Assembly: GCA_036344075.1 (NCBI GenBank)
Contig: JAYYUJ010000018.1
Coordinates: 460 to 64,459, forward strand
Length of the DNA: 64,000 nt
From: Pseudomonadota bacterium
GTDB taxonomy: Bacteria > Pseudomonadota > Gammaproteobacteria > Pseudomonadales > UBA7434
Reading direction: 5' to 3'
Below, one piece after another: positions 14,858 to 16,630 of this stretch. Positions within the stretch are counted from its first letter, which is position 1. Every line of letters begins with the position of its first letter. The notes beneath the pieces were generated by a model. The model was not told where the DNA came from. It searched no databases and saw only the letters and a program-made list of their open reading frames with translations. The position numbers and the translations under genes are program-made.

Positions 14858-16630
14858 ATGCTCAAGCAAAGAAAATTACCTTCAAAGCCTTTGCCGACGA
14901 TCAGCAAGCGTGAGTTTGCTCGTCGTCGAGAACAATTAATGGAGCAGATGGAAACAAACAGTATTGCAATTCTTCCGTCCGCCAGTGCGGTGATTCGAAA
15001 TCGAGATGCTGAGTTTAAGTATCGTCAAGACAGTGACTTTCATTATTTAACTGGCTTTAATGAGCCAGATTCGGTGTTGGTGTTAATTCCTGGCCGTCAT
15101 CACGGCCAATGTTTATTTTTTTGCCGTGAGCGAGATCCCGAGAGAGAATTATGGGATGGCTACCGCCAAGGGCCCGAAGGCCTATGCAATAATTTCGGTG
15201 CCGATGATGCTTTTCCAATCAGTGATATTGACGACATTTTACCTGGGCTTTTAGAGGGCCGCGATCGCGTTTACTATTCCATGGGTAAACGACTTGAATT
15301 TGATAAACGGATTATGGACTGGGTCAATGTGTTGCGCGCTAAAGCTCGCTCTGGTGCTCATCCGCCCGGCGAGTTTTCTGATCTCGATCATATTGTTCAT
15401 GACATGCGCTTGTATAAAAGTGCCGCTGAATTACGCATTATGCAGCAAGCTGCTTCTATTTCAGCTGACGCTCATACTCGCGCGATGAAATTCTGTCGAC
15501 CGGGCATGATGGAGTATGAATTAGAGGCGGAGTATCTGCATGAATTTGCCTCACGCGGTGCGCAGGCTGCGGCTTATAATTCGATTGTTGGCGCAGGCAA
15601 GAATGCCTGTATTCTGCATTATGTTGAGAATAACAGCATAATACAGGATGGCGATTTAGTGCTGATCGATGCCGGTTGCGAGTTAAATTACTACGCTGCC
15701 GATATTACTCGCACCTTTCCCGCCAATGGCCTCTTTAGTCGCGAACAGCAAGCGCTGTATGAGGTGGTGTTAGCCTCTCAGCAAGCGGCGCTAGAAACCA
15801 TTACACCTGGAGGGCATTGGAATCAATCTCACGATGCGACAGTGACAGTTATCACCCAAGGCTTGTTAGATCTGGGTATTTTACAGGGTGAACTAGCTGA
15901 ACTGATTGAGACCGAAGCCTATCGTCCTTTCTATATGCACCGTGCTGGCCATTGGCTGGGCATGGATGTTCACGATGTTGGTGATTACAAAGTTCACGAT
16001 GAATGGCGAGTGCTTGAGTCGGGTATGGTCATGACGGTTGAACCGGGTATTTATATTGCTGCCGACAATCAATCGGTGGCCGCTAAGTGGCGAGGTATTG
16101 GTATACGTATTGAAGATGATGTGGCTGTGACAGCGACTGGCCATCAAGTCTTAACTGAGGAGGTTATTAAGACGGTTGATGATATTCATCAGTTGATGCG
16201 GCCTTTGGTAGTCAAGCGTAGCAGTATTGATCCCGCGCAAATAGATTTTATTAGCGATGATGGACAATACTCAGCACAAGAGAATAGCTTCGTTAAGAAT
16301 CAGGCAGCGCGTAATAGTAAGCCAAGTGACCAAGCTAAGCCCGTGTTGAAAGCCAGTACAAAGAAAAAATCAATTATCAAGAAAAAAACCACTGCTAAGA
16401 AAAAAATCAGCACTAAGAAAAAACTGACTACGAAGAAAAAAGTAGCTGTGAAGCGTAAGACTGTCACTAAGAAAAAAGTAGTCGCTAAGAAAAAAATTGC
16501 AGTTAAGAGGTCGGCCGTAAAAAAGAAAATAAGTGTAAAAAAGAAATCGGCTGTTAAAAAGAAAGCAGCGGCTAAAGGTCGACCTAAGTTGCCCGTTAAA
16601 AAGCGCGTAAAAGTGAAAAGTAAGCGATGA
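14858..16630 (+). CDS. pepP: Xaa-Pro aminopeptidase PepP with an approximately 145-aa lysine-rich C-terminal extension
   Basis: 590 aa. The M24B core is complete: DSDFHYLTGF, LIDAGCELNYYAADITRTFP, HRAGHWLGMDVHDVG, VEPGIY and GIRIEDD. The core ends near ...VDDIHQLMRP (about aa 445). The ORF then continues through a polar linker and KKKxxx repeats to a stop that overlaps the ubiH ATG. Confidence 0.9.
   Translation: MLKQRKLPSKPLPTISKREFARRREQLMEQMETNSIAILPSASAVIRNRDAEFKYRQDSDFHYLTGFNEPDSVLVLIPGRHHGQCLFFCRERDPERELWDGYRQGPEGLCNNFGADDAFPISDIDDILPGLLEGRDRVYYSMGKRLEFDKRIMDWVNVLRAKARSGAHPPGEFSDLDHIVHDMRLYKSAAELRIMQQAASISADAHTRAMKFCRPGMMEYELEAEYLHEFASRGAQAAAYNSIVGAGKNACILHYVENNSIIQDGDLVLIDAGCELNYYAADITRTFPANGLFSREQQALYEVVLASQQAALETITPGGHWNQSHDATVTVITQGLLDLGILQGELAELIETEAYRPFYMHRAGHWLGMDVHDVGDYKVHDEWRVLESGMVMTVEPGIYIAADNQSVAAKWRGIGIRIEDDVAVTATGHQVLTEEVIKTVDDIHQLMRPLVVKRSSIDPAQIDFISDDGQYSAQENSFVKNQAARNSKPSDQAKPVLKASTKKKSIIKKKTTAKKKISTKKKLTTKKKVAVKRKTVTKKKVVAKKKIAVKRSAVKKKISVKKKSAVKKKAAAKGRPKLPVKKRVKVKSKR
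16361..16627 (+). repeat. Imperfect tandem 18-nt (hexapeptide K-K-K-x-x-x) coding repeat inside the pepP 3' end
   Basis: The units begin aagaaaaaa / aaaaagaaa at 16361, 16379, 16397, 16415, 16433, 16451, 16469, 16487, 16505 (a 15-nt unit), 16520, 16538 and 16556. A degenerate K/R-rich end follows at 16574-16627.

They translate as KKKSII KKKTTA KKKIST KKKLTT KKKVAV KRKTVT KKKVVA KKKIAV KRSAV KKKISV KKKSAV KKKAAA, then KGRPKLPVKKRVKVKSKR. Confidence 0.95.

Follow-up and report, generated by a model that had tools for sequence, protein, structure and literature searches.

The PepP of an uncultured marine gammaproteobacterium joins, within a single reading frame, a complete Xaa-Pro aminopeptidase P core to a long, strongly basic C-terminal tail that appears from its pattern of conservation to be translated and kept for its charge and composition. 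Tails of this type are known from other bacterial proteins; on PepP the tail is newly described, and the remark in the first-pass annotation that no such PepP was known agrees with the open-access literature, where none is reported (subscription journals lay outside the scope). The features of the locus are collected in Table 1, in which the window is the whole 64-kb stretch of DNA that was analysed.

Table 1. Layout of the tailed pepP gene and its surroundings in the window.
Feature	Position	Strand	Remarks
pepP ORF	14858..16630	+	590 aa; core and tail share one frame
PepP catalytic core, aa 1-447	14858..16198	+	AMP_N and M24 pita-bread domains; charge -21, pI 5.2
Polar, nearly neutral linker, aa 448-501	16199..16360	+	variable except for the motif; pLDDT < 50
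Short linear motif D-P-A-Q-I-D-F-I, aa 458-465	16229..16252	+	~10 residues past the core, with variable flanks
Hexapeptide array, aa 502-573	16361..16576	+	~12 imperfect 18-nt units K-K-K-x-x-x (x = V/A/I/T/S/L); TRF period 18
Basic C-terminal tip GRPKLPVKKRVKVKSKR, aa 574-590	16577..16627	+	ending ...KKRVKVKSKR / ...KVKNKR kept in close relatives
Antisense F/L-rich ORF, 115 aa	16300..16647	-	judged a non-gene, an artefact that mirrors the K/V/A codons of the sense strand
ATGA overlap of pepP stop and ubiH-like start	16627..16630	+	identical in related loci L001-L003
ubiH-like FAD-dependent monooxygenase	16627..17934	+	3' of pepP, outside the tail; Pfam FAD_binding_3

The NCBIfam equivalog model NF008131 scores 514.7 bits on the protein, against a cutoff of 465, and aligns aa 15-447 to model positions 1-432 of 438; the Pfam domains AMP_N (PF05195, 1.3e-40) and Peptidase_M24 (PF00557, 2.1e-62) together span aa 20-426. 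Residues D271, D282, H365, E395 and E419 align to the five E. coli dinuclear-metal ligands D260, D271, H354, E383 and E406, and H254 and H372 to the catalytic histidines; none of these seven residues varies among 52 homologues, and the AF2 pLDDT is confident over the core. By these sequence criteria the core is a complete PepP, predicted to be catalytically intact. Canonical PepP (E. coli 1a16, P. aeruginosa 5wze) has an orthologous core (4e-201 to 5wze) with the ligands common to both, but it ends 5-8 residues past the last helix, at ~440 aa, whereas the present protein runs 143 residues further. Because the core model and the solved PepP chains stop at query aa 447/448, ~143 codons lie beyond the whole of the known fold; the earlier division into a complete core and an in-frame tail is borne out, with the end of the core shifted from "about aa 445" to aa 447. 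E. coli PepP is a tetramer (PDB 1a16 family).

The sense frame runs on from pepP into the tail in the window and in nine of ten tailed related loci, and in the tenth (L004) the tail frame is open up to the contig end; it is likewise unbroken from core to tail in ~55 independent database proteins, and the PepP-tail protein recurs on contigs of independent origin in NCBI, JGI, ENA, Tara and Logan data. The remaining two forward frames of the tail region hold 12 and 22 stops, in line with the spot checks made in the first-pass annotation, and when the tail's 429 nt were put through 100,000 mononucleotide shuffles, the frame stayed open in only 3. Among all species-level relatives the tail is open and in frame, with indels that are solely in-frame (6 and 16 codons). 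The gene stands in a ygfB-pepP-ubiH-visC neighbourhood, the same setting as that of canonical bacterial pepP, and the operon coupling read from the overlap of its stop with the ubiH start recurs in three related genomes. Taken together, these sequences indicate that the tail belongs to the pepP reading frame and that this frame is conserved as translated.

The tail comprises residues 448-590, of which 45 are Lys and 8 Arg, and carries a net charge of +47 against the negative charge of the core. It opens with the linker, whose sequence is as given in the first-pass annotation, and continues with units of the form AAG AAA AAA NNN NNN NNN, for which TRF returns a period of 18 over 16364-16576. 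Eight KKKxxx hexapeptides stand in register (aa 502-549); a one-codon slip follows, and then four more (KKKISV, KKKSAV, KKKAAA and neighbours), so that the units number about 12 in all, where the previous count was 12-13. Acidic residues number zero in aa 497-590. Pooled over the clade (6,021 residues), the tails consist of 45% K, 16.5% V, 12.6% A and 2.9% P, with 0.8% D+E and 0% aromatics; the tail is thus proline-poor and valine-rich, not A/P-rich. AF2 gives it a pLDDT of 30-38 across residues 451-590, as coil with secondary structure absent, and it is predicted to be intrinsically disordered. No further lysine-rich stretch was found in the 64-kb window, and because no other gene there bears such a tail, nothing points to a localisation system shared across the genome.

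Comparison with relatives, proposed earlier as a check on the tail, finds it both lineage-conserved and variable in repeat number: the related genomes all keep the tail frame open, with tail lengths of 88-239 aa across the clade (a 2.7-fold range), and complete PepP proteins inside one 90%-identity cluster measure 572-626 aa and differ in length by repeat units. Slippage-prone 18-nt units build the tail. In the tree, which is monophyletic for the tail, untailed relatives lead to short lysine tails and these to long tails, with length and charge both rising. The tail had a single origin, within a marine lineage of the Cellvibrionales/Pseudomonadales, after which it lengthened step by step. The core evolves at a dN/dS of 0.03-0.05, the repeat at 0.44-0.56 and the linker at 0.28-0.52. 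A basic residue is retained at 45-46 of the 46 basic positions (98-100%), and 46-47 of 48 spacer positions stay within A/V/I/L/S/T/G/P, only 20-30 of them being identical, which matches the earlier observation that the lysines are kept while the spacers drift inside an aliphatic or hydroxylated class. Selection on the tail would appear to act on charge and composition more than on exact sequence, and the claim of a translated tail under protein-level selection is upheld in this compositional sense.

A dN/dS of ~0.5 and a fast turnover of repeats would, however, be equally expected from a weakly constrained low-complexity region. It is conceivable, if unlikely, that the tail is a tolerated, near-neutral slippage expansion of the A-rich 18-nt unit, in which selection only purges variants that harm PepP (frameshifts, acidic or aggregation-prone residues); such an origin fits the rapid changes in copy number, a tail dN/dS about ten times that of the core and the poor conservation of the exact tail sequence across the clade. 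It does not fit the retention of the tail by every member of a deep clade, whose core identity falls to ~73% and in which the trend is growth and not decay, nor an unfailingly open frame, nor the conservation of the basic positions together with the near exclusion of D, E and aromatics. Two further points weigh against near-neutrality: the linker holds an invariant motif, and the 45-96 added lysines would, as we infer from general knowledge, cost a marine bacterium a great deal of nitrogen.

The first-pass annotation had likened the tail to histone H1, AlgP and Hc1, and the likeness holds for composition and charge but not for family. Pfam and NCBIfam give no match on the window tail, including HC2 (PF07382) even at E <= 0.1, and orthologue tails reach only 21.7-28.3 bits on HC2 against a gathering score of 40, a composition-driven signal short of membership; KPAA repeats of the AlgP/PhaF kind are absent, the unit being the 18-nt hexapeptide KKKxxx. 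Like the domains of P. aeruginosa AlgP and PhaF and of chlamydial Hc2, the PepP tail is a long, disordered, highly cationic C-terminal domain of short tandem repeats, attached to a folded N-terminal domain and subject to in-frame repeat variation. The known ligands of such domains are DNA, RNA and polyphosphate (polyP) granules: the C-terminal domains of AlgP and PhaF bind DNA and polyP granules (PMC9239181, PMC11894788), and repeat number differs among strains via in-frame changes in AlgP (PMC9239181) and in Hc2 (PMC2848022). The differences are equally plain: AlgP, PhaF and Hc2 have KPAA tetrapeptides or A/P-rich pentamers where PepP has KKK followed by three of V/A/I/T/S and little proline, their folded partner is a nucleoid, phasin or regulatory protein where here it is a metabolic peptidase, and the PepP tail has PAQIDFI as an additional conserved motif. 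The K/V/A, proline-poor make-up of the tail differs from that of every tail with measured binding.

A second comparison lies within the enzyme's own fold. Eukaryotic methionine aminopeptidase 2 (MetAP2) and its lysine-rich-ended relatives by likeness, Ebp1/Arx1, also combine an M24 pita-bread fold with a charged, disordered terminus of variable length; the polylysine extension of MetAP2 makes contact with ES27L in the rRNA and sets the enzyme in place at the ribosome (PMC10808355). That extension, however, is N-terminal, much shorter and made of alternating acidic and basic blocks, on a eukaryotic M24A enzyme, whereas the extension of the bacterial M24B PepP is C-terminal, purely basic and 88-239 aa long; the two are independent acquisitions. 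A third set of enzymes, RNase R, RhlE and Ku, appears comparable in having a disordered, lysine-rich C-terminal region that confers affinity for polyanions (RNA, DNA or polyP): the basic domain of RNase R binds polyP, as does YihI (PMC12345225), and the disordered regions of the RhlE helicase and the PAKKA repeats of mycobacterial Ku are described as lysine-rich regions adding such affinity (PMC11260450, PMC3553676). The substrates of RNase R, RhlE and Ku are nucleic acids, and their tails therefore aid substrate binding; the substrate of PepP is a peptide, so that any polyanion binding would serve localisation and not catalysis.

By analogy with these proteins, the function that we hold to be the probable one, by a little better than an even chance, is that of an unspecific polyanion tether. 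The tail would act as a non-sequence-specific electrostatic tether that gathers PepP on RNA or ribosomes, on nucleoid DNA or on polyphosphate granules. If the enzyme is tetrameric like E. coli PepP, four tails would place ~+190 charges round an acidic core, and such multivalent tails may help PepP to form or join condensates. PAQIDFI would have a role of its own, as the specific site at which a protein partner or another PepP subunit docks. The chemistry of catalysis would be the same, and what would be altered is the location of the enzyme and its encounters.

The same polybasic and hydrophobic character could instead anchor PepP at the cytoplasmic membrane, on its anionic inner face, for example beside peptide transporters, a reading suggested by the alternation of three-lysine blocks with three aliphatic or hydroxylated residues and by the high net charge. 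We regard it as improbable: on geometric grounds a period of six residues yields neither an amphipathic helix nor a strand, aromatics and long hydrophobic anchors are absent, and the conserved ygfB-pepP-ubiH neighbourhood has no coupled membrane or transport gene.

Within the otherwise variable linker, PAQIDFI appears as an island of constraint. Its residues P, A, Q, D, F and I show no variation among 18 diverse tails, and the pattern [D/H]PAQ[I/V/M]DFI[G/S] is matched by 25 of 27 distinct sequences, the exceptions being the single substitutions PTQVDFI and LAQVDFI. The form PAQ[I/V/M]DFI is confined to the long-tailed clade, and the shorter tails of the sister group are without it. A profile of the linker and early tail, run against 1.84 billion representatives for the motif and lysine module on other proteins, returned only two pepP-tail fragments; this negative is a weak one, because the HMMER composition filter probably hides lysine-rich hits. 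The motif, the strongly acidic core, the polymorphism in repeat number and the stepwise growth of the tail are features of this locus that the first-pass annotation did not mention.

The position of the motif near the core raises the question as to whether the tail acts on PepP itself, folding back on or bridging acidic cores while PAQIDFI docks a neighbouring subunit, so that oligomerisation, activity or self-coacervation is regulated. The opposite charges of core (-21) and tail (+47) and the tetrameric state of the E. coli enzyme, which is general knowledge, lend this some appeal. The AF2 monomer model, however, built from a 52-sequence alignment, shows no docking of PAQIDFI on the core and places the motif with low confidence (docking in trans is beyond the reach of a monomer-only run), a 2.7-fold range in length suits a defined intramolecular contact poorly, and the sister group's tails have no motif; the chance that the tail works in this way is slim. 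Slimmer still is the chance that PAQIDFI docks a hub protein and, with a DNA-binding tail, recruits PepP to the nucleoid or replisome or, through a different partner, to the ribosome. Set against the sliding-clamp motif Q1-L2-x-L4-F5, which it fits loosely, the stretch Q461-I-D-F-I465 of the disordered linker has Q at position 1, D at 3 and hydrophobic residues at 2, 4 and 5, with F and I replacing L4 and F5. The consensus of the beta-sliding-clamp binding motif is weak (PMC4549789), and because of this weakness such a match easily arises by chance.

Should the polyanion tether prove real, PepP would clearly exemplify, in nature, how a histone-H1-like disordered tail can organise a soluble metabolic enzyme in the space of a bacterial cell. 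Proteins of the nucleoid, of granules and of RNA processing are so far the main known bearers of such tails. Should the docking reading be true, a housekeeping peptidase would gain a chromatin- or translation-associated role in abundant marine bacteria. What is known of PepP chemistry is unchanged by the tail. The clade itself constitutes a natural length series, from no tail through ~50-100 aa to ~90-240 aa, with and without the linker motif; it is a ready-made experiment in which charge and valency can be set against the binding of RNA, DNA or polyphosphate, or against condensation.

That the stretch lies outside PepP, as an intergenic repeat past a missed stop or frameshift or as the coding region of the antisense ORF, is effectively refuted: it could draw on that ORF, whose frame is open in orthologues, and on a few metagenome ORF calls (P0121-P0123) that are frameshifted fragments of the region, but the sense frame is continuous at the loci and in the database proteins as described above, indels are always in frame, and a search of the tail stretch for a terminator, a promoter or an Rfam family (E <= 1) found none. 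The case of a non-conserved intergenic repeat with pepP ending upstream, against which the first-pass annotation had staked its reading, is likewise excluded by orthologue frames that stay open through the entire tail. That every orthologue has an open antisense codon-complement frame is a mechanical consequence of the scarcity of TTA, CTA and TCA among the sense codons of the tail; the ORF mirrors codon usage and was rejected as a gene.

A protein search with the tail by itself returned three short fragments alone, which are pieces of the pepP tail called as partial or frameshifted ORFs, and missed even 95%-identical full-length orthologues, most likely because of the HMMER composition filter; the result carries no weight for other protein families. 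Homopolymer A-runs, for their part, yield frameshifted ORF calls in metagenome assemblies. Because filters of this type hide the tails and A-runs break the ORF calls, such extensions are easily overlooked or mis-annotated.

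The window protein combines a PepP that is catalytically intact by sequence with a translated, selected and disordered polycationic extension whose linker carries a conserved motif. Residues 15–447 match the NCBIfam Xaa-Pro aminopeptidase equivalog end to end (model positions 1–432 of 438; 514.7 bits, cutoff 465 bits) and contain the Pfam domains AMP_N and Peptidase_M24. The nearest solved structures are Pseudomonas aeruginosa PepP (5wze, E = 4e-201) and Escherichia coli PepP (1a16), the alignments stopping at query residues 448 and 447, respectively. By alignment, the E. coli metal ligands D260, D271, H354, E383 and E406 correspond to D271, D282, H365, E395 and E419, and the catalytic histidines to H254 and H372; a 52-sequence alignment shows no substitution at any of these window residues. 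Because the equivalog match is end to end and every ligand and histidine is present and invariant, the enzyme part is complete and looks active; these data and the structural alignments bear out the complete core claimed by the first-pass annotation, and the overlap of the pepP stop with the ATG of a ubiH-like gene (ATGA), also claimed there, is present in the window. The neighbourhood (rpiA, 5-formyl-THF cyclo-ligase, 6S RNA, UPF0149/ygfB, pepP and two ubiH/visC-type monooxygenases) is the classical gammaproteobacterial arrangement. The 6S RNA and cyclo-ligase genes form the usual ssrS-ygfA pair, divergent from ygfB-pepP; the flanking cytochrome P450 and PQQ-dependent dehydrogenase genes have no relation to the tail.

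Features of the window and of numbered related loci (L)
Feature	Location	Strand	Remark
Cytochrome P450 gene	9763-11028	-	flanks conserved ygfB-pepP-ubiH block
5-formyl-THF cyclo-ligase gene	12069-12671	-	adjoins 6S/SsrS RNA gene
6S/SsrS RNA gene	12777-12954	-	Rfam RF00013, 98.8 bits
pepP ORF	14858-16630	+	single ORF, 590 aa
D-P-A-Q-I-D-F-I motif	16229-16252 (aa 458-465)	+	about ten residues past core
Phe/Leu-rich antisense ORF, 115 aa	16300-16647	-	mirrors lysine tail
In-frame A_AAA_AAG heptamers (two)	16519-16525, 16537-16543		second half of repeat
PQQ-dependent dehydrogenase, C-terminal cytochrome c domain	19851-22028	+	flanks ygfB-pepP-ubiH block
K/A/T-rich histone H1-like-type ORF	L037 1-330	-	separate ORF
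K/A/T-rich histone H1-like-type ORF	L075 13-177	-	separate ORF
K/A/T-rich histone H1-like-type ORF	L046 788-1732	-	separate ORF
K/A/T-rich histone H1-like-type ORF	L042 1114-1317	-	separate ORF

The tail (aa 448–590, 143 residues) begins with a polar linker and ends in a basic tip; between them lie about 12 imperfect hexapeptide units, each encoded by AAG AAA AAA plus three variable codons (period 18 across 16364-16576, TRF). It matches no Pfam or NCBIfam model. With the family alignment as input, AF2 models the core confidently and leaves residues 451–590 at pLDDT 30–38 without secondary structure. Computed charges are −21 for the acidic core (pI 5.2) and +47 for the tail (pI 11.4), within a protein of 66 kDa and pI 9.5. 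E. coli PepP is a tetramer; if the window enzyme is too, each assembly would carry four such tails.

That the tail belongs to the translated PepP frame, as first proposed, is upheld by the window and, more strongly, by comparison. The other two forward frames, in which spot checks had found stops, contain 12 and 22 across the tail, and only 3 of 100,000 shuffles of its 429 nt stay open in frame. In the nearest genomes, uncultured marine Cellvibrionales/Pseudomonadales MAGs, the frame of every complete gene runs through the lysine-rich tail to a stop, giving 606, 596 and 590 aa in L001–L003 and at least 587, 664 and 573 aa in L005, L006 and L008, where length is counted from the beginning of the tblastn match; in L004 it is open up to the contig end. 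Relative to L001–L003, indels are limited to insertions of 16 and 6 codons, which keep the frame. Conservation in the lineage and variation in repeat number, a check suggested at first pass, are both seen: one 90%-identity cluster holds complete proteins of 572, 582, 584, 596, 602 and 626 aa, the differences being whole repeat units, and periods of 18, 36 and 72 nt at 80–93% identity in relatives make recent duplication visible. An assembly artefact is excluded, since tailed proteins recur in independent NCBI, JGI, ENA, Tara and Logan assemblies. A non-coding or antisense reading is effectively excluded; no terminator, promoter-like site or Rfam family was found in the tail stretch. The antisense ORF, a possible source of mis-annotation by ORF callers, has a frame that orthologues also keep open; it is rejected as a gene because rare sense TTA, CTA and TCA codons leave that frame open as a mechanical by-product.

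Of the 120 best homologues, the 42 whose cores are at least 81% identical are all tailed (88–239 aa, net charge +30 to +90), about 14 at 68–79% identity bear tails of 48–101 aa (+17 to +38), and the remainder (Dasania, Oceanicoccus, Spongiibacteraceae and others) stop at about 440 aa. Untailed, shorter-tailed and long-tailed cores fall in nested order in a simple neighbour-joining tree without bootstrap or other support values, which suggests that the tail was gained once and then grew. One protein of the short-tailed shell (P0043, 510 aa; 48-aa basic C-terminal tail) also has an apparent lysine-rich N-terminal extension (…MVKSKVGKKSKMAIKKTSKIKD…) before the conserved start region, at L007 3914-4045. 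In Sedimenticola and other gammaproteobacterial MAGs, the K/A/T-rich ORFs (e.g., AKKATAKKATAKK…) are located a few kb upstream of pepP genes that have no tail.

Against three relatives, dN/dS (Nei-Gojobori) is 0.03–0.05 for the core, 0.28–0.52 for the linker and 0.44–0.56 for the repeat. Basic positions stay basic at 45–46 of 46, and spacers are identical at 20–30 of 48 and remain within A/V/I/L/S/T/G/P at 46–47, matching the conserved lysines and drifting aliphatic or hydroxylated spacers described at first pass; judged by these substitutions, the constraint on the tail is compositional. The rival reading here is a tolerated neutral expansion. Pooled tails of the clade (6,021 residues) contain 44.8% K, 16.5% V, 12.6% A, 6.1% S, 5.1% I, 4.8% T, 2.9% P, 0.8% D+E and no aromatics.

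The linker motif was missed by the first-pass annotation. The pattern [D/H]PAQ[I/V/M]DFI[G/S] occurs in 25 of 27 distinct long-tailed sequences amid freely varying flanks, the two exceptions being single substitutions (PTQVDFI and LAQVDFI); an 18-sequence tail alignment shows no variation at P, A, Q, D, F and I, and the shorter-tailed sister group lacks the motif. It behaves like a short linear motif within a disordered region. Its Q-I-D-F-I core fits, loosely, the weak β-clamp consensus Q-L-x-L-F, in which position 1 is Gln and positions 4 and 5 are hydrophobic (PMC4549789); this is only a lead. Docking of the motif is not seen in the AF2 model.

We infer from measured precedents that the tail would tether the enzyme to cellular polyanions electrostatically and without sequence specificity, and that the motif would be a specific docking site. 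In AlgP and PhaF the lysine-rich C-terminal domain binds DNA, and AlgP localises to and spaces polyphosphate granules (PMC9239181, PMC11894788); RNase R and YihI have lysine-rich regions that bind polyphosphate (PMC12345225); and the polylysine extension of MetAP2 follows rRNA ES27L and helps retain MetAP2 where the tunnel leaves the ribosome (PMC10808355). Any of ribosomal RNA, nucleoid DNA and polyphosphate would be a plausible target. Competing explanations are an interaction of the tail with the protein's own acidic core and a membrane anchor; by our reasoning, a six-residue period gives neither an amphipathic helix nor an amphipathic strand.

The proposed likeness to H1/AlgP/Hc1-type proteins holds for how the tail would work, but not for membership of HC2 or of the KPAA-type domains: the window tail has no profile match, orthologue tails reach 22–28 bits against the HC2 cutoff of 40, and the repeated unit is not KPAA but a hexapeptide rich in valine and poor in proline. 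MetAP2 shares the pita-bread fold and is a parallel, separately acquired case; the window extension, by contrast, sits at the C-terminus of a bacterial M24B enzyme and is purely basic. In public annotation the tailed proteins are plain "Xaa-Pro aminopeptidase", and, in line with the first-pass remark, no description of a lysine-rich PepP tail was found in the open-access literature searched. Given these parallels without profile membership or prior mention, the tail is rated a new form of a known type of lysine-rich tail. Tail-only and profile searches found no tail or motif module on other proteins, a weak negative because lysine-rich sequences appear to be lost at the HMMER composition filter: the tail-only search returned short fragments and not the 91–96% identical full-length orthologues P0001–P0004. 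Proteins whose lysine-rich tails are long seem to be removed in this way, which leaves extensions of this kind systematically under-detected.

The tail also contains nine runs of 6–7 A, and its two A_AAA_AAG heptamers are dnaX-type −1 slippery sequences, at which a putative slip would reach a stop after 10 or 4 further codons and remove about 25–30 tail residues. Three metagenome ORF calls of 81–108 aa (P0121–P0123) match window 16190-16630 as frameshifted or partial forms of the tail, P0123 beginning in the +1 frame and then shifting into the lysine frame; they probably stem from assembly or sequencing errors in homopolymer runs, and are possibly real frameshift variants.
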